64,000 nt of DNA from a phage. A model generated the notes under the pieces. The model was given only the letters and a program-made list of their open reading frames with translations. It did not search any database and was not told where the DNA came from. Made by a program: the position numbers and the translations under genes. Below, piece by piece: positions 15,062 to 22,975 of the stretch (positions are counted from its first letter, which is position 1; every line of letters begins with the position of its first letter). Location of the stretch: the sequence record PZ402301.1; one strand, given 5' to 3'.

Positions 15062-15451
15062 TTAATCCAAAATATTATTAGGCATTGGTTGAACACTCGC
15101 AAGTTCTTTAAAGAACTCAGTAGAGTCAGGTAATTTAACCATTTCCGGAGCATGCTTACTAAATTTATGTTTGCAATGACGGCATTTATATTCAAGTTCC
15201 GGTTTACGCCAGTTAATCAATTGAACCTGTTCAGTACCGCATTCAGGACAATTAGGAACGTTTTTAGAAGCCCTTTCGCGACGTTCAACCATAGCCATAA
15301 TAGCATCCCAGGCTGGAGGTTTAAAATCTAAATCGTCACAACCATGAATCTTTCCACGCATTTCTAAATCGTCTTCTTCACCAGCCATAATAATTTTAAT
15401 TAGACTGGAATTACTTGAAGCTGCAATATCTTCTAATAGACGCTTTTTCAT
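15062..15451 (-). CDS. hypothetical protein with zinc-ribbon-like CPEC...CRHC motif (129 aa)
   Basis: Cys pairs NCPECGTEQ and CRHCKHKF. Confidence 0.45.
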
Positions 15452-16377
15452 TTCAGTACCTCAATAGCATTACGTAAACCATTTGCTTTTGCATTAAGAG
15501 CTTTTAACAATTTAGTGTGTTCGGCAATTTGGGCTTCAACTTCAATCAAACGAGCATTGAGATATTCGCGTTCTTCGCTCAAGCTATCAACCTTTTCTAC
15601 TTTAGGTTCTTTTACAACTGGCTTATATGTATTAGGGTTCTTCAGTTTAATTAGAATACGTGAACTGTATAACATTGAACCATTATTTTCGATTTCGTCA
15701 TACATTTCTACTACGTCCATGATTTTTAACATCATGCGGAGTTTATAAGATAACGAACGAATAGTTTTGTTGTGCTTATTAATTTCTCTAGCTGTCATGG
15801 TGCCGAGATTACGTGAGTAATAATAAGGAACCTGGATATTAATTAATACTGATGAACCACCTGGCTTGTGTGTTACTTCATCAGCAATAACCCAGTCCTT
15901 AACATGAACTGTATTTGTACGGTCATCGCCCGCGGTAAATAGTTTACGAGCATGCTTAAAAAGCATATTCACTTGGTCATTGAATTGACAAGCAAATTTA
16001 TCAGCAAATTTAGTTTCAGGAATGGTAGATAACCAATCAGCCAAATGGGTCTTTTTAACATCGTTAACAATAGTAAATTCAACTAAATCGGTTATAGATG
16101 TCGTAGATTTAATGAAGCTCGGCTTCATAAAGTTTTCAATGTTATCACGAGCTACAGTAGAAGATAACATACGAGAACGTTTAAACCATTCAAGCAAATT
16201 GCCTAACGAATAAGAATAAGCGTTTTGAGTATCTTTACAGATATGATTTTCCTGGCCAACATATTGAAGGAAATCACGAAGAATATTATTGATTACTGCT
16301 CTGTGTCCGATCTGATAATTACGGTGTTTAGTAATAAGACTGTCAAAATAATCAATATAATGTTTACGAGTTTTCAT
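15448..16377 (-). CDS. paralogous family member 1 (309 aa), C-terminal coiled coil
   Basis: shares architecture and C-terminal heptad-rich tail with the next three ORFs. Confidence 0.55.
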   Translation of the reverse strand: MKTRKHYIDYFDSLITKHRNYQIGHRAVINNILRDFLQYVGQENHICKDTQNAYSYSLGNLLEWFKRSRMLSSTVARDNIENFMKPSFIKSTTSITDLVEFTIVNDVKKTHLADWLSTIPETKFADKFACQFNDQVNMLFKHARKLFTAGDDRTNTVHVKDWVIADEVTHKPGGSSVLINIQVPYYYSRNLGTMTAREINKHNKTIRSLSYKLRMMLKIMDVVEMYDEIENNGSMLYSSRILIKLKNPNTYKPVVKEPKVEKVDSLSEEREYLNARLIEVEAQIAEHTKLLKALNAKANGLRNAIEVLK

Positions 16378-16429
16378 GTTCTTCTCACTTGGTTAATGAT
16401 TTATACTCCGAGCCATCCTTGGCTTTAAA

Positions 16430-17431
16430 TTACTTAATTAACTGTAAAGCTTGTTCAAGACGATCCAGGCGATTAACAGATTCTTCCCAAATCCTTTTAG
16501 CCTGCTCATATTCTTTCTGCGCTTTATTAGAAATTTCTAGAACTTCTTTATAAGTCTTTTCTAGTGCAATAACTTCTGGACGAATTTCTACAGGTTCAGG
16601 CGAATCATCAAGATTATCCATTAGTTCCTCAAGTGTAATTTCTTCTTTAGGAGTATTCACAATTTCATCACATTTTTGTTGGTAAATTTCTTTATCAGTC
16701 GGTGAGTATGCACATTTCACTTCACGAAGACTAACTACAATTTTATATCCTTCCCAACCGCATATATTCTTAAAAGGATACGTATGAATATTTTCTACTG
16801 TTTCCATACAAAGTAATGCGGTTTCTAATTGACGAGTTATAGTGCTAGCAATTGAGAAAAATTTATTAATGTTCTTTTGGTTAGTTTCTGGTGTAAAAAA
16901 TCCATAATTCACAAAAATAGATACTTTATTTTTATCAAGTTCATATTCTTTTATGATAATCATATCAGAAGCCAAAGGATGAATTTGACGATAATTGCCA
17001 TAACATAATTTAGAAGCTGATTTTAGAATTTGCTTTTTGAAAAGTCTGAAATTACTAATCCAACGACGAGTAAAAATATTCTCAGGGTCTTCTTTATTAT
17101 TAAGATGATAAGAATTAACATCACCGAACCAATTATATCCTACTACATCTTTGGTTCGTTTAATTTCTTTCCCAAAATTACCAAGAATATCCCGATTAAC
17201 CAAATATGAAAGAAGACGAGAACCTTTAAAGGTTTTCTTAATGTCATCTTTATCCGTACGACTAGAAATTTCACGAACTTCGTGAATAAATTTGCTGGAA
17301 GAAACAATGCTTACATCAATATTATTGAGCCATCGATTGATAATGGAAATAACGATATTCTGACTAGTCATAGGTTTAACTTTATCATCAATAACGCTAT
17401 TGAATGATTTGATATATTCGTTACGAGTCAT
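16430..17431 (-). CDS. paralogous family member 2 (about 333 aa from internal Met), C-terminal coiled coil
   Basis: start chosen downstream of early promoter at 17461..17489. Confidence 0.55.
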   Translation of the reverse strand: MTRNEYIKSFNSVIDDKVKPMTSQNIVISIINRWLNNIDVSIVSSSKFIHEVREISSRTDKDDIKKTFKGSRLLSYLVNRDILGNFGKEIKRTKDVVGYNWFGDVNSYHLNNKEDPENIFTRRWISNFRLFKKQILKSASKLCYGNYRQIHPLASDMIIIKEYELDKNKVSIFVNYGFFTPETNQKNINKFFSIASTITRQLETALLCMETVENIHTYPFKNICGWEGYKIVVSLREVKCAYSPTDKEIYQQKCDEIVNTPKEEITLEELMDNLDDSPEPVEIRPEVIALEKTYKEVLEISNKAQKEYEQAKRIWEESVNRLDRLEQALQLIK

Positions 17432-17460
17432 ATTAATCTCCTCAGTAGAAAGTAAGAACA

Positions 17461-17489
17461 TTATACCACATCCTTGTGGCAAAGTAAAC
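17461..17489 (-). promoter_or_regulatory. T4-type early promoter
   Basis: minus-sense GTTTAC -35, spacer with palindrome CCACA-TCCT-TGTGG, -10 GTATAA. Confidence 0.45.
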
Positions 17490-18517
17490 TAGTTTAGTGC
17501 ATTTAGTGCATTGTTCAGTTTAGAACGTTGCTTCGTGAGATTTTTGACTTTTTCTTGAGCTTTTTCTAGCATCTTTTCAGCTTCTAACACTTCATTAGTT
17601 GCTTTAACGAGTTCATCATCTACTGCCTTGATAGACTTCTCAATCGCATCGGCATGCCATTTTTCAACAGGTTTAAGACTCGGATTTTCAACAGGAAGAA
17701 AATTCACTTTATTGAATTTCCATGCATCCTTATTACCTGAACTATACATCCAAAATTTAGGATCGTTTGATGAGTAATTGGATAAATTTAAATTTAAGTT
17801 ATCTTGCACTTCCTGCTTTTTCTCTTGCGGGACTTCGTCCTTTCTCAAAAATTCATATTTAAATGAAACGATCATATCAAGTTCATATGTTGTTGTGTCT
17901 AATTTAAATCGTTCGAAATGTTGTGAAATCTTAGACTGAACAGCAGCAACAACATCCATATACTTAAATGCTTCTGTCAACTGCGATTTAAGGCATTCGC
18001 AAATTGAAAGAGAATTTTTTGTATTAGGTTTAAAGCTAATTCGTGCAGTTCTGTTATTTTCTTTTAATGGTCTTACTTCCATCTGAAGAGTATAACCATC
18101 AAATTTCAGGTTCTTTAAGTTAATGTCAGAACCTTTTAATCGACTAGCCGTCGACAAAATTTGCTTTAATTGTCTACGGAACAGAGCAATAAATCTCCAT
18201 TCAATACGATAATGATTTGGATTGAAAAATCCAGATGATAAATCGACCTTACTTTGACCAACGCCTTGAACAAATAGAGGATTTTTATAATCAATGGTTT
18301 TACAGAAATCGGTGAGTTGCTCACGAGCAGTCATTTGTGTAATATACCCCGCTTTACTAAAATGACGTAACCATTCACTGCTATTCGTATACTTAAAGTG
18401 ATGAATAACACGATTAACTTTATCAGGGTCTAAATTATTTTCACACAAAAATGTCATAACATCACGAGTATAGCTGGCGTTACGAACCATATCTTCAATT
18501 TGAGAACGAGTTTTCAT
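17489..18517 (-). CDS. paralogous family member 3 (342 aa), C-terminal coiled coil
   Basis: N-terminus MKTR... like member 1; internal motif WRFIALFRRQLKQILSTASRL resembles equivalents in paralogues. Confidence 0.55.
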   Translation of the reverse strand: MKTRSQIEDMVRNASYTRDVMTFLCENNLDPDKVNRVIHHFKYTNSSEWLRHFSKAGYITQMTAREQLTDFCKTIDYKNPLFVQGVGQSKVDLSSGFFNPNHYRIEWRFIALFRRQLKQILSTASRLKGSDINLKNLKFDGYTLQMEVRPLKENNRTARISFKPNTKNSLSICECLKSQLTEAFKYMDVVAAVQSKISQHFERFKLDTTTYELDMIVSFKYEFLRKDEVPQEKKQEVQDNLNLNLSNYSSNDPKFWMYSSGNKDAWKFNKVNFLPVENPSLKPVEKWHADAIEKSIKAVDDELVKATNEVLEAEKMLEKAQEKVKNLTKQRSKLNNALNALN

Positions 18518-18525
18518 GGTGTTCC

Positions 18526-19416
18526 TTAAGATTTAAGTAAATCAACAATTTTAATTAACTTTTCACGCTCAGATTTAGCTTTACTACTCAATCCAGATAG
18601 TCTGAAAATTTCATCGTCATATTGTTGAATAGAAATATTCAGCTCTTCAATCTGTTTATTAAAATAATCAATTTGTTCAGAATGTTTTTCGTTACTACGA
18701 ACTGGTACAGGTTTTGTAGGCAATGTAGTTGAACTGGATTCATCCGGGCGATAAATTAAAATACAACTTGAACCAATAGGGCATTTTGCACCAGATGAAT
18801 ATTCTAATGTTCCAGCTTCTTTTAAAACTTCAAAAGCTAAACAGAGATGATGCCCCATATTAACATAATCTGTAGAGTGAGCTCTGATGTAATAATCATC
18901 GCCACGAATACTAAATTTAAAGCATTTAAGGTCTTCTGTATTATTGGTCTTAAAAATCATCTGTTTATCTAGACCTTTAGCTAATCGAGCGCCCAATGCT
19001 AATAATCGTCGCTGATTTTCCCACAAATCCGCAATCATTTGGTCGAATGATAATTTTGGCATTAGTCGACCATAAAGGTCATATCCTTTATTGTAATTAC
19101 GAAGGATTTCACTCGCGTTAATACGAGACAATGCTCCAATTTTATTAAGGGCTTTCATAATGCGATTAGATAAACTCATTCCAGATCCATTTGTTCGCTG
19201 TAAATGTTTTTCTAATCCAAATCCAATATCAACTTTAAACTTATCTAAAATTTCTGCATGAACATCTCTGTCAATAACATTCAAATCCAAAGTTGGGTTA
19301 AATCTATGAAAAAACTTATCTGGCTCTCCACGGCGAAATACAGTCCATTCATTCATCATTTTTTTATTAGCTAAAGATTTAATTACTGCATTGACATTAT
19401 TAATTACTACTGACAT
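18526..19416 (-). CDS. paralogous family member 4 (about 296 aa), C-terminal coiled coil
   Basis: start at internal Met avoids overlap with upstream gene. Confidence 0.5.
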   Translation of the reverse strand: MSVVINNVNAVIKSLANKKMMNEWTVFRRGEPDKFFHRFNPTLDLNVIDRDVHAEILDKFKVDIGFGLEKHLQRTNGSGMSLSNRIMKALNKIGALSRINASEILRNYNKGYDLYGRLMPKLSFDQMIADLWENQRRLLALGARLAKGLDKQMIFKTNNTEDLKCFKFSIRGDDYYIRAHSTDYVNMGHHLCLAFEVLKEAGTLEYSSGAKCPIGSSCILIYRPDESSSTTLPTKPVPVRSNEKHSEQIDYFNKQIEELNISIQQYDDEIFRLSGLSSKAKSEREKLIKIVDLLKS

Positions 19417-19423
19417 ATTTTCC

Positions 19424-19831
19424 TCACTCAATTTCAATTTTACTAAATACACAGAATATGATTGAACAGACTACATAAGCACCACACACAGATTGAACTA
19501 ATACCATCCCAAAGAACCAAACAATATTATCAAACAGTGTCTGTTTTACGTCGAAAGGACGTAAACTTACAGTAATATTATCACCTTTTTCTATTGAAGA
19601 ATACATCTCTGGGGAAATATATTCACTAAATCTATAACCGTCTTTGAGTTCATATACGGCAATAAACGATAAACTAGACCCTTTTCCTTGTGTTCCTGTA
19701 ATGGTATTAACTACAGTAACATCATAATCTTTATAATGCATATAATCATTAATTGCGTAATAACCGTATGCAACTACTACACATAAACAACATATCAATA
19801 AATTCAATCTTTTAATTATCAACTGTTTCAT
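19424..19831 (-). CDS. membrane protein (135 aa, N- and C-terminal hydrophobic helices)
   Basis: hydrophobic segments LLICCLCVVVAYGYY and IVWFFGMVLVQSVCGAYVVCSIIFCVF. Confidence 0.5.
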   Translation of the reverse strand: MKQLIIKRLNLLICCLCVVVAYGYYAINDYMHYKDYDVTVVNTITGTQGKGSSLSFIAVYELKDGYRFSEYISPEMYSSIEKGDNITVSLRPFDVKQTLFDNIVWFFGMVLVQSVCGAYVVCSIIFCVFSKIEIE

Positions 19832-19886: not shown

Positions 19887-20414
19887 TTATGCGAGTACCG
19901 TCTTTAACCGTTCTTCAAACTTCCGAAGAGTATTTTGGCGTTCAGCTCTTTGCTTTTTGTAAGTTTCAATACGCTCTGAAATGAGAGTGTATCGTTCATT
20001 TACTGATTCTTTCATAAAATCAGGAATTTCACGAGAAGCTTTAATCTCGTCAAATTTATCAATAACAGCTTGCTCTTCAGCAATTAAGTTATCATACATT
20101 AAAATATCTTTCTTGATGAACTCAATATCTTCTTGAGTTACACGAGATAATTTAGATGCTTTATCCTTTTTGTACTGTTCGTTAGTATCACGAGACCAGT
20201 GTAATGTACGATTTTTATTCGTATTTTTGTAAATTTCTACAATACCAATCTCATCAATAATAACGATCCAATTCCAACGGGATTTGTAAATTTGTCCTCC
20301 ATCAACTGTGATTTCACCTCCGATTGAGATGTCGTTAAAGAACTTGCTTTGTGCTTCAGATTTAAATTTACCATCGTTGTAATTTACCAAGTTGAAAATA
20401 TCTTTAGCGTTCAT
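19887..20414 (-). CDS. hypothetical protein (175 aa)
   Basis: ORF with good context downstream of early promoter. Confidence 0.5.
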   Translation of the reverse strand: MNAKDIFNLVNYNDGKFKSEAQSKFFNDISIGGEITVDGGQIYKSRWNWIVIIDEIGIVEIYKNTNKNRTLHWSRDTNEQYKKDKASKLSRVTQEDIEFIKKDILMYDNLIAEEQAVIDKFDEIKASREIPDFMKESVNERYTLISERIETYKKQRAERQNTLRKFEERLKTVLA

Positions 20415-20878: not shown

Positions 20879-21859
20879 TTATTTCAGAAGAGTAACCTCA
20901 GCAATTTCTTCCCAACCGTTTTTGTCGGTCATAATAAAGTCAGCAAGATAAAGAGCAGTACGCAGTGAAACATTGCGTAAACGGTTAACATTAACTTTCA
21001 TCCATGATAATGCTTTATAAGTTTCTTCATCAGAAAGACCACGCTTTTGCATCATGTCAGTTGAAAGAATAACATCTTCAACCCTGACCATAATTTCTTC
21101 ATTAGTGTGAACACCCAAATCCAAATAAACCGAGCGGGACACTAATGCTTGTAAATGTGGAGCAAGTTTAGTACCACGGTCTAATTCGCGGTCAATGTCA
21201 ACGTTTGTGATAAAAACAATCGTTCCTTTAAATTCAAACTCACGGTCAATGCCTTTTTCTTCTAAGTAAGAAGATGCAGTGCTCCAGCAGACTTTACGGG
21301 TCTCTCCGGTGTCCAGAGCGGCTTTTAGAAGATTAAGAATGTCCATATCAGAGAAAACATCCACATCATCAATCAAAAGGACAGAATTCTCTTCACGATT
21401 ATTCCAAAGCTGTTCATAAAGACCAATACCAGAGATTTTACCATTAATGCTTTTATATTCAATGTATCCAATATCATTTGCTTTATTTAAAGCTTTATCT
21501 AAAGAATACGTTTTACCAATACCTGCTGCGCCAGAGATAATCAATGAACGAATATTTCCGTTAATAATACCATTCGTCATCATTCCCATAACATTAAATC
21601 TTTTATTAATGCGGGTTTTCATATCTTCATACGATTCTTTAACTTCTTCAACTTTTACACCATCATATGAAATATCTGATTTGTAAACCCAAACACCGCG
21701 ACGTTTACCGTCAATTTCAACAAAAACTTTACCATCTCCTTGTGCATCTACCGGAGCATTATCTGGGAACCATTCGCCTAAGAGCTCAAAAGTTCCAGAG
21801 ATTTCTTTACCGAAGTAGATACCCTTATTGATAGTTACAGTTTTCATTTTATTCTCCAA
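20879..21859 (-). CDS. AAA+/P-loop ATPase (326 aa)
   Basis: Walker A GAAGIGKT and Walker B LLIDDVD read in the translation. Confidence 0.6.
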   Translation of the reverse strand: MENKMKTVTINKGIYFGKEISGTFELLGEWFPDNAPVDAQGDGKVFVEIDGKRRGVWVYKSDISYDGVKVEEVKESYEDMKTRINKRFNVMGMMTNGIINGNIRSLIISGAAGIGKTYSLDKALNKANDIGYIEYKSINGKISGIGLYEQLWNNREENSVLLIDDVDVFSDMDILNLLKAALDTGETRKVCWSTASSYLEEKGIDREFEFKGTIVFITNVDIDRELDRGTKLAPHLQALVSRSVYLDLGVHTNEEIMVRVEDVILSTDMMQKRGLSDEETYKALSWMKVNVNRLRNVSLRTALYLADFIMTDKNGWEEIAEVTLLK

Positions 21860-21880
21860 ATCCGTATCAGTTGATAGTTG

Positions 21881-21911
21881 TATAGTACCATAAAGCTTTA
21901 TGCCTGTAAAC
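21881..21911 (-). promoter_or_regulatory. T4-type early promoter with conserved leader
   Basis: minus-sense GTTTAC -35 ... TACTAT -10 ... ACAACTATCAACTGATA. Confidence 0.5.
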
Positions 21912-21941
21912 CGTTTTGTGAAAAAATTTTAAAATAAAAAA

Positions 21942-21960
21942 GGGAGCCCGAAGGCTCCCT
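21942..21960 (-). terminator. terminator hairpin GGGAGCC-CGAA-GGCTCCC
   Basis: perfect GC stem with tetraloop immediately after stop of 21962..22975. Confidence 0.6.
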
Positions 21961-21961
21961 A

Positions 21962-22975
21962 TCATTTATAATAACTTCGATGGTTTTCAAGATAAACCCT
22001 CTCAAGGAAGTCATCCCAGAAACCCATGTCTACTTTTTGCTGCATACCGTTCTTAGAAGCTTCAATAGATGCTGCTTCTACTTGATCGACCACATCTTCC
22101 AAAAACTCTTGAACAGTTTTAAATGGATGCTTACCCAGCTTCACGTCGAGAATAAATGGAGCGTCTTGAAGTGGATAAACTAAGTCACCGGTTTTGTAAA
22201 TTTCCAATAGTTGGAGTCCACCACGACAAGCATGACTCAGAGCTTTCCAGTCAATACCCTCATTCGCTTCAGCTTTACGAGCACGTTCACCATATTCAGC
22301 ATCAAGTTTATTCAAAGACTGCTTAAGCTCAATAAGAGAAAGTGTAGTCTGATATTTACGACCCAACACAGTGTAAAACGTTTGTGGGCCTGTTTTCTCA
22401 TGATTATGGAATACCCATTCGCAGAACTCGTTTTCTGGAAGACGATGCTTAATATCTTCAACTTTAGTGCGACGAAGTCTATCAGGGATTCCTTCTTGAT
22501 AGTCGACCCACTGGTCAGGGATTTGATTAACTACTTTCAATACATCACGCAATGCGGCCAAACGAGAACCCTTGACACCATATTTAGAAGCTTGCTTGCG
22601 GACATATCCTAAATAAGATTTCATGTTAGTTGTATAAAAACGAGAACGATTGTCTTGAATAAACTTCCATACATCAGGCAAATCAGATTTAACTACCAGT
22701 TCAGGTGGAGTGTGAAGCATATCCAATGCTACAGTTTCACCATCTGCTGCTAATTTAAAGAAATACTTAAGACTGTATAGTTCATGGTCAATATCATCTT
22801 TAGTGTTTTTAGATGATGTGTTGTTAGTGTTTTTGCTCATATGCTCTTTAACATTTCCAATAAGAATATCACGAGCAGGAGGAACAAAGATTTCTTTAAA
22901 ATCTACATCAGATTCTGGAGTAGAAGTTCCATAAAGATGACTACCAAAATAGCTTTTCATTACTGTTTTCATCAT
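21962..22975 (-). CDS. nucleotidyltransferase-fold protein (pol-beta-type NTase signature), 337 aa
   Basis: N-terminal motif G11-S12-x3-G16-x5-S22-D23-V-D25 plus downstream VALDML acidic residue. Confidence 0.5.
   Translation of the reverse strand: MMKTVMKSYFGSHLYGTSTPESDVDFKEIFVPPARDILIGNVKEHMSKNTNNTSSKNTKDDIDHELYSLKYFFKLAADGETVALDMLHTPPELVVKSDLPDVWKFIQDNRSRFYTTNMKSYLGYVRKQASKYGVKGSRLAALRDVLKVVNQIPDQWVDYQEGIPDRLRRTKVEDIKHRLPENEFCEWVFHNHEKTGPQTFYTVLGRKYQTTLSLIELKQSLNKLDAEYGERARKAEANEGIDWKALSHACRGGLQLLEIYKTGDLVYPLQDAPFILDVKLGKHPFKTVQEFLEDVVDQVEAASIEASKNGMQQKVDMGFWDDFLERVYLENHRSYYK

Follow-up and report, generated by a model that had tools for sequence, protein, structure and literature searches.

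nrdC.3 to nrdC.6 of a T4-like phage: a tandem array of diverging genes with predicted coiled-coil tails that includes an orthologue of the anti-Dsr1 gene nrdC.5

The four genes between nrdC.2 and nrdC.7

The phage sequence record PZ402301.1 was analyzed as a stretch of 64,000 nucleotides, referred to here as the window. Its minus strand carries four consecutive open reading frames (ORFs), which were identified as nrdC.3, nrdC.4, nrdC.5, and nrdC.6 through synteny with the annotated genomes of phages ime09 and T4 (NC_000866); their lengths (Table 1) agree with the range of about 296–342 amino acids (aa) given in the first-pass annotation. The array is flanked by nrdC.2 and the membrane-protein gene nrdC.7, and the gene order is that of T4. 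The 4-kb region showed 96–97% nucleotide identity to many Tequatrovirus (T4-like) genomes, with vB_EcoM_SA20RB as the nearest match (97.3%), and by its sequence the source genome is assigned to Tequatrovirus. Identity to the T4 proteins was 61% for nrdC.3, which represents a different allele, 92% for nrdC.4, 95% over the full length for nrdC.5, and 97% over residues 1–259 for nrdC.6.

The array had been annotated as spanning 15448–19452, of which the lower end and the ORFs themselves were retained and the upper end was revised. The GTG at 19452, first taken as the start of nrdC.6, lies 12 codons upstream of the ATG used by annotated relatives; this ATG, at 19416, is preceded by a GAGG ribosome-binding site and is preferred. 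For nrdC.4, the 333-aa start agrees with the T4 annotation and with nrdC.3 and nrdC.5, which likewise begin with M-(K)-T-R, and it is also favored because the alternative ATG, at 17461, has a promoter-like site downstream of it.

The four ORFs belong, over their full length, to catalogued families: PF26897 and PHROGs 1435 for nrdC.3 and nrdC.4, PF23882 (DUF7235) and PHROGs 2351 for nrdC.5, and PF26899 and PHROGs 2257 for nrdC.6. The matches to phrog_1435 covered positions 1–334 of 334 (E values of 1e-115 for nrdC.3 and 1e-164 for nrdC.4), nrdC.5 matched DUF7235 over model positions 1–307 of 307 (E 1e-125; 419.5 bits against a cut-off of 30), and nrdC.6, whose Pfam assignment was precomputed, matched phrog_2257 at E 1e-151. 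Searches of Pfam, PHROGs, and NCBIfam returned no thioredoxin or glutaredoxin family for any of the four proteins, nothing in NCBIfam came near the curated cut-offs, and the predicted NrdC.4 model has a fold other than thioredoxin. In many deposited GenBank genomes nrdC.3–nrdC.11 bear the label “thioredoxin”, which, as nrdC.3–nrdC.6 lack such a domain, was carried over from the gene name.

Table 1. Genes, protein segments, and promoter-like sites of the array, in window coordinates
Feature	Coordinates	Strand	Description
nrdC.3	15448..16377	-	309 aa; ORF, ime09/T4 synteny
nrdC.4	16430..17431	-	333 aa, start MTRNEY; ORF, start as annotated in T4
nrdC.5	17489..18517	-	342 aa; orthologue of the T4 anti-Dsr1 gene
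nrdC.6	18526..19416	-	296 aa; most divergent member
nrdC.4 basic-motif helix	17006..17068	-	residues 122-142, RRWISNFRLFKKQILKSASKL; helices 119-130 and 132-142 in model
nrdC.5 basic motif	18137..18199	-	residues 107-127, WRFIALFRRQLKQILSTASRL; near-invariant in family, aligned to nrdC.4 motif
nrdC.3 tail	15451..15576	-	residues 268-309; a/d positions 83% hydrophobic vs 48% overall
nrdC.4 tail	16433..16579	-	residues 285-333, end RLEQALQLIK; a/d 86% hydrophobic; helix 285-332 in model
nrdC.5 tail	17492..17662	-	residues 286-342, end KLNNALNALN; a/d 94% hydrophobic over 16 positions
nrdC.6 tail	18529..18681	-	residues 246-296, end KLIKIVDLLKS; a/d 86% hydrophobic
Early-promoter-like site upstream of nrdC.3	16400..16429	-	TTTAAA, 18-nucleotide spacer, TATAAA; read from sequence
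Early-promoter-like site upstream of nrdC.4	17460..17488	-	TTTACT, 17-nucleotide spacer, TATAAT with upstream TG; promoter scan 10/12

Homology and predicted architecture of the four proteins

To compare the four genes, family alignments were built from database matches together with genes taken out of complete phage genomes, and these were compared by hhalign. The nrdC.3 and nrdC.4 proteins, which fall in one PHROGs family (phrog_1435), were 25.7% identical over 226 aa in BLASTP, and their profiles matched at E 5e-14 with a probability of 98%. The combined nrdC.3 and nrdC.4 profile matched that of nrdC.5 at E 2e-6, improving to 1.2e-8 once diverged nrdC.5 orthologues were added (probability 95.6%, 220 collinear columns), and at E 8e-7 when only genome-derived genes were used. 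A structural link joins the same lineages. Protein gp080 of Klebsiella phage Mineola matched the nrdC.5 hidden Markov model (HMM) at E 6e-11, and the 326-aa Mineola protein A0A2Z4QAR2, evidently the same protein judging by length and phage name rather than by sequence, matched the NrdC.4 model by structure in a BFVD search (E 1e-7, template modeling score 0.45), so that the nrdC.4 fold is tied to the nrdC.5 sequence lineage. In an exhaustive HMMER search of 1.84 billion representatives, the NrdC.5 profile retrieved 13 proteins only, which places the NrdC.5 family, by sequence, within the T-even-like phages.

Single-sequence searches with BLASTP and phmmer found no significant pair among the four except nrdC.3/nrdC.4, as would be expected if the likeness were purely compositional, arising in unrelated genes from an AT-rich genome and helices rich in Lys and Glu. 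The profile comparisons, the shared PHROGs family, and the structural link contradict this explanation. Reversed profiles scored 11–17 and 30 block-shuffles reached at most 28.7 and 31.8, far lower than the observed 43.6 and 66.5. By these comparisons nrdC.3, nrdC.4, and nrdC.5 are homologous and their paralogy is established, the compositional explanation being refuted for these three; for the four genes taken together, we regard it as next to impossible. The alignment that the first-pass annotation had proposed as a check thus revealed a resemblance beyond composition.

The position of nrdC.6 was less clear-cut. The merged nrdC.3, nrdC.4, and nrdC.5 profile matched nrdC.6 at E 2.7e-5, or at 2.5e-4 with genome-derived genes only, and the score of this match exceeded all reversed and block-shuffled controls. 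An alignment of the nrdC.4 family with the window nrdC.3 and nrdC.5 sequences added gave E 6e-3 against nrdC.6, and nrdC.5 alone gave 0.017–0.2, which is not significant. The same two collinear motifs, outside the tail and in the same order, were always aligned: the first reads [F/L]-K-x-[S/I]-[R/G]-x-L-S-...-[A/N]-x-[D/E]-x-L-x-N-[F/Y]-x-K, and the second is a basic helix (WRFIALFRRQLKQILSTASRL, RRWISNFRLFKKQILKSASKL, NQRRLLALGARLAKG). An apparent recruitment of nrdC.6 at E 4e-18 by iterated hmmsearch was rejected as an artefact of a natural NrdC.6::NrdC.4 hybrid protein, from phage Manna, in the profile. It is conceivable, though rather unlikely in our judgment, that there are only three paralogues and that nrdC.6 is an unrelated array gene whose coiled-coil tail was acquired independently. 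Each single family gave a weak profile match to nrdC.6 (E 1e-3 to 0.2), hmmsearch from nrdC.3, nrdC.4, and nrdC.5 missed it when the Manna hybrid was excluded, it forms a family of its own in Pfam and PHROGs, and it lacks the M-(K)-T-R start common to the other three; against this stand the match of the merged profile, the same length class and head–linker–tail layout, the terminal L-x-x-[I/V]-x-x-L-L-K, and an array position that is kept in Tequatrovirus, Mosigvirus, and Dhakavirus-type phages. We therefore treat the homology of nrdC.6 to the other three as probable and not proven, and of the four tandem paralogues originally claimed, nrdC.3, nrdC.4, and nrdC.5 are established and nrdC.6 is the probable fourth. 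Of the three separate families of unknown function in the databases, at least two, and probably all three, are joined by these comparisons into one superfamily.

The basic motif that had been claimed as conserved proved to be real. The nrdC.4 motif aligns with its counterparts in nrdC.5, nrdC.3, and nrdC.6, it is the most conserved block in the nrdC.5 and nrdC.6 families, and it is helical (residues 119–142) in a confident AlphaFold2 model of NrdC.4. This model was computed from the merged family alignment, with a predicted local distance difference test (pLDDT) value of 84.8 and a predicted template modeling score of 0.68. From the N-terminus, it consists of a helical bundle (3–84), three strands (88–110), the basic-motif helices (119–148), strands (158–174), a helix (185–208), further strands (212–235), and short helices, followed by a low-confidence linker at about 250–284 and a single long helix (285–332). 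The corresponding NrdC.5 model, computed from 16 sequences that were mostly at least 88% identical, reached a pLDDT of only 42.7, and it was not used for fold searches because only its tail helix (283–341, pLDDT 58–93), the sole confident part, was usable. Each of the four proteins is thus predicted to comprise an N-terminal helical bundle, an alpha/beta domain with the conserved basic helix, a flexible linker rich in Pro, Glu, and Lys, and a C-terminal coiled coil.

A Foldseek search of BFVD with the NrdC.4 model returned 17 matches at E <= 1e-3. The close ones were two nrdC.4 fragments, 88–94% identical, from phages G8 and T2; the remainder were mostly full-length matches of 10–18% identity to uncharacterized proteins of about 310–370 aa. 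Four targets were nameless, and the named ones all came from T4-like phages of Enterobacter, Klebsiella, Pectobacterium, Yersinia, Acinetobacter, Erwinia, and Serratia, with Aeromonas phage Aeh1 lower in the list (E 0.014). By predicted fold, the superfamily extends to single-copy genes in T4-like phages of Klebsiella, Pectobacterium, Erwinia, Serratia, and Acinetobacter. In the Protein Data Bank (PDB), the same Foldseek search found nothing at E <= 1e-3, the top matches being TRAPP Bet3 and Rpb11, and searching its sequences with the NrdC.5 profile gave no meaningful match. The predicted NrdC.4 fold has no counterpart among solved structures.

All four C-termini are made up of 6–8 heptads, in which the a and d positions are 83–94% hydrophobic, compared to 37–48% for the tails overall. 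Our criterion for a coiled coil was hydrophobic heptad periodicity over at least four heptads within a predicted helix; by this measure the 11–16 a and d positions were 82–94% hydrophobic, against 33–48% overall, and the long helices of the NrdC.4 and NrdC.5 models supported the assignment. The tails end in a shared pattern, [K/R]-L-x-x-[A/I]-[L/I/V]-x-x-L-K, with ALN in the window nrdC.5 where its relatives have ALK, and the heptad-rich tails with L..L/LLK ends reported earlier are accordingly confirmed. Of 12 comparisons within orthologous groups, 11 showed the tail to be better conserved than the head: identities were 59–71% for the tail versus 26–39% for the head of nrdC.6 across genera, 83–86% versus 57–76% among nrdC.3 alleles, 57–59% versus 40–49% among nrdC.4 orthologues, and 28–40% versus 19–24% among nrdC.5 orthologues. 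The single exception was one nrdC.4 (genome L009; tail 31%, head 39%), whose ORF stops matching the family profile at position 295 of 336. Variable heads on a conserved tail, as first described, therefore hold within orthologous groups and not between paralogues, where the likeness of the tails is limited to the heptad pattern and the last ~10 residues. Self-association within each family, or a partner specific to each family, would agree with this distribution.

Divergence, copy number, and rearrangement

The array genes have diverged faster than their surroundings. Within Tequatrovirus, the flanks were 98–100% identical, compared to 61–97% for nrdC.3, 89–93% for nrdC.4, 90–97% for nrdC.5, and 93–98% for nrdC.6. 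Between genera, where nrdC.3 was absent, the flanks were 67–89% identical, compared to 40–51%, 22–28%, and 45–52% for nrdC.4, nrdC.5, and nrdC.6, respectively. Pairwise ratios of nonsynonymous to synonymous substitution rates (dN/dS) were 0.06–0.33 in the array and 0.00–0.10 in the flanks. Relative to the T4-type allele, nrdC.3 was 80–100% identical at its ends and only 23–60% in the center, and relative to the Mosigvirus allele it was 90–100% identical in the center and 33–40% at the N-terminus. By these sequence comparisons, nrdC.3 is a mosaic in its central domain.

Natural phages often carry rearranged versions of the array. Phage ACG-C40 lacks nrdC.4 entirely and has lost most of both nrdC.5 and nrdC.3, with the remnants out of frame (L002, 1388–2407 and 5805–6216); in the same phage, a ModB-like ADP-ribosyltransferase gene and a DUF4031 gene are inserted between nrdC.11 and nrdC.10. 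The nrdC.4 gene of phage G8 is frameshifted and split into ORFs of 193 and 158 aa (L008, 9950–10982), and for phage T2 an nrdC.4 fragment of 155 aa is listed in BFVD (G8 and T2 entries A0A482N302 and A0A2Z5WKJ2), which suggests that nrdC.4 has become a pseudogene in some classical T-even phages. An internal deletion puts nrdC.6 of phage Pinarejo out of frame, and in the T4 reference nrdC.6 (275 aa; L026, NC_000866 8567–9394) a frameshift after about residue 259, either real or an old sequencing error, removes the coiled-coil tail. Hybrids also occur: one metagenomic genome carries an nrdC.5::nrdC.3 fusion, and Salmonella phage Manna, in which nrdC.5 is deleted, has an annotated 345-aa in-frame hybrid, NrdC.6(1–262)::NrdC.4(251–333), with the junction at a shared DEI (L024, 3215–4252), i.e., an NrdC.6 head on an NrdC.4 linker and tail. 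A 173-aa ORF (P0231) looked like a further head swap: 120 aa of unrelated sequence lead into an identical NrdC.5 tail, after which come the promoter and start of nrdC.4. It was discarded as probably a chimera of the assembly, because its MEGAHIT metagenome contig (L023) is only 803 bp long and because the head differs from the T4-like part by a visibly higher GC content and was unmatched in the phage collection.

The comparison of copy number across T4-like phages, another check suggested in the first-pass annotation, gave 1, 3, or 4 copies by genus, located directly upstream of nrdC.2, nrdC.1, and nrdC. Acinetobacter phage Kimel (343 aa, starting with MTTR and ending with ILSK), Citrobacter phage Moon, and Klebsiella phage Mineola have one copy each; the assignment of Kimel and Moon relied on architecture, on position, and on profile matches that were weak (E 1.6e-4 for Kimel and 5e-5 for Moon), the Moon copy being linked by its profile match and position only. 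Mosigvirus has three copies in the order 6-5-3, and Tequatrovirus has four in the order 6-5-4-3. Three copies, in the order 6-5-4, were also found in contigs that we take to be of Dhakavirus and VR type (Gaprivervirus-like), JS10 being the one whose label was checked. No family member was found at the syntenic locus of RB43. Matches to nrdC.3, nrdC.4, nrdC.5, and nrdC.6 occurred in 654, 554, 582, and 742 records of the phage collection, respectively, almost always at one place per record. The youngest paralogue is nrdC.3, present in Tequatrovirus and Mosigvirus.

The promoter-like sites of nrdC.3 and nrdC.4 (Table 1) share the spacer motif GCCA.AGGATGG, which suggests that the nrdC.4-to-nrdC.3 duplication included the promoter; nrdC.7, nrdC.6, and nrdC.5 are tightly coupled. 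On the other side, the start of nrdC.2 (15062–15451) overlaps the nrdC.3 stop at 15448–15451 (ATGA). In the window nrdC.2 encodes a zinc-ribbon protein of 129 aa; phages differ strongly in the length and sequence of nrdC.2 (50–98% identity). The 175-aa product of nrdC.8 (19887–20414) is 99–100% conserved within Tequatrovirus, unlike the array genes; it also has a heptad-rich C-terminal tail, and hhalign detected no homology between it and the array (E 0.03–0.5). Beyond it lie nrdC.10 and nrdC.11 (20879–22975), with a strong bidirectional terminator-like hairpin at 21941–21960. Compared to the array, the nucleotidyltransferase gene nrdC.11 is much better conserved and much wider in distribution, occurring in 1505 phage records, among them phages of Vibrio, Aeromonas, and Acinetobacter.

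NrdC.5, Dsr1, and the function of the family

The annotation made from the sequence alone had stated that no function was recognizable, which is out of date for nrdC.5. In the work of Srikant, Guegler & Laub (eLife 2022, PMC9391042), an evolved T4 clone with compensatory deletions was unable to plate on ECOR17, deletion of the host gene dsr1 restored plating, and cloned dsr1 protected MG1655 from the mutant T4. Plasmid-borne T4 nrdC.5, which the authors call an early gene, restored plating of the deletion mutant on MG1655 carrying ECOR17 dsr1 (PMC9391042). Dsr1 is a SIR2-domain protein, a sirtuin NADase of the host. Its Avs7-type sensor, which detects phage major capsid proteins, is also fused to many other effectors (PMC13581612). 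The window ORF at 17489–18517 is the orthologue of T4 nrdC.5, with 95% identity over the full length, the same array position, and the same Pfam family (DUF7235), and through this orthologue an anti-Dsr1 role may be assigned to it. Neither paralogy with nrdC.3, nrdC.4, and nrdC.6 nor a mechanism is described in that paper (PMC9391042). The searchable literature contained nothing on DUF7235 or anti-Dsr1 activity beyond this 2022 study, no published function for nrdC.3, nrdC.4, or nrdC.6, and no NrdC.5 mechanism. Together with the fast divergence, the higher dN/dS, and the mosaics, deletions, and hybrids, the Dsr1 phenotype of T4 nrdC.5 supports the arms-race character that had been proposed for the array.

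In the explanation that we consider reasonably probable, the array is one fast-evolving family in which nrdC.5 is the anti-Dsr1 orthologue and the proteins silence host immune proteins through their heads and coiled-coil tails. Building on the observed gene identities, homology, architecture, and evolutionary pattern and on the published nrdC.5 phenotype, the course of events would be as follows. A single gene, such as is found beside nrdC in more distant T4-like phages, would have given rise to the array by tandem duplication, and the proteins would be made early from sigma-70-type promoters. They may oligomerize through their family-specific coiled-coil tails, and the variable alpha/beta heads may bind a pre-existing host immune protein (Dsr1 in the case of NrdC.5), which would stop this protein from being triggered or from destroying nicotinamide adenine dinucleotide (NAD+). 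NrdC.3, NrdC.4, and NrdC.6 may do likewise to other defense proteins or to other variants of Dsr1/Avs7-type sensors. A narrower version, in which NrdC.3–6 are one superfamily of coiled-coil oligomeric inhibitors specialized against the Avs7/Dsr1-type capsid-sensing domain, each paralogue or mosaic allele acting against a different sensor clade, seems improbable to us; if it were true, the expansion from one to four copies would track the diversity of Avs7/Dsr1-type sensors in Escherichia coli.

Several observations weigh against a family of oligomeric immune inhibitors. The support for nrdC.5 in PMC9391042 is genetic rescue only. The gene-wide dN/dS of the array is below 1 and positive selection was not demonstrated, and promoter-like sites are no commoner in the region than in shuffled sequence. 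The homology of nrdC.6 rests on E values of 1e-4 to 1e-5 over about 70–85 columns, and the iterated HMM search without the hybrid protein recruited nothing new and did not reach nrdC.6. Three of the four proteins have isoelectric points of 9.1–9.3, which fits nucleic-acid binding, and residues 30–86 of NrdC.3 weakly resemble the SAM-like N-terminal domain found in phage integrases and in XerD (E 0.1 in Pfam and 0.004 in NCBIfam). These last two points, together with the Lys/Arg-rich helix that is the most conserved element, could also be expected of host-takeover or nucleic-acid-binding factors acting on transcription, the nucleoid, or RNA, with an indirect escape from Dsr1 and no immune targets for the paralogues. 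Many T4 early genes target host macromolecular synthesis. However, the domain matches are far under the curated cut-offs (the tyrosine recombinase N-terminal SAM-like domain reached 13.4 bits against 22.3 in Pfam and 16.5 against 279 in NCBIfam), rapid divergence, mosaicism, and recurrent loss are unusual for factors acting on conserved host machinery, and the sole tested phenotype is specific to a defense gene. We hold such a takeover role to be unlikely. Far less likely still is the idea that the alpha/beta head mimics a virion protein of the tail terminator or tail completion fold and serves as a decoy for sensors of phage structural proteins. It derives from a resemblance to lambda gpU-like tail terminator/completion proteins, which lies below the usual level of homology and comes with no sequence similarity, and the same score range holds generic alpha/beta folds such as nitroreductases, RNA polymerase alpha/Rpb11, and designed alpha/beta proteins. 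The PDB search described above speaks against it as well, and Dsr1 senses the capsid protein, not a tail terminator.

Viewed as a set of immune inhibitors, the array does not represent a new kind of system, because one member is already a known counter-defense gene. A functional parallel is DSAD1, the anti-DSR2 protein of SPbeta-type phages. It is likewise a small phage protein that neutralizes a SIR2-domain NADase defense sensing a virion protein, and it differs in having a Bacillus host and a target, DSR2, that senses the tail tube. DSAD1 was absent from the returns of the general sequence and structure searches; no direct comparison with DSAD1 was made. Within T-even phages, the dmd-tifA-adfA and IPI-IPIII loci are comparable, being non-essential, early, variable among close relatives, and lost in compensatory deletions, with each gene matched to a host defense (PMC9391042). 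However, those loci consist of unrelated small genes (PMC9391042), whereas here one family of 300–340 aa proteins with a common coiled-coil tail has expanded in tandem.

In the searchable literature, we did not find the superfamily relationship, the shared tail, or the expansion from one to four copies. As nrdC.5 of the same family is already known to defeat Dsr1, nrdC.3, nrdC.4, and nrdC.6 are good candidates for further immune inhibitors, and the widespread “thioredoxin” mis-annotation of nrdC.3–nrdC.6 is corrected. Mutations could be directed at the tail, at the basic helix, or at the central domain with its hypervariable sequence, and natural experiments are already at hand in laboratory T4, whose reference sequence is without the NrdC.6 tail, in T2 and G8 with a split nrdC.4, and in the head/tail hybrid of Manna. 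Dsr1 is a widespread NAD+-depleting defense, and only recently was the major capsid protein recognized as its trigger; a family of four with a head–linker–coiled-coil architecture would add three concrete inhibitor candidates in the best-studied phage.

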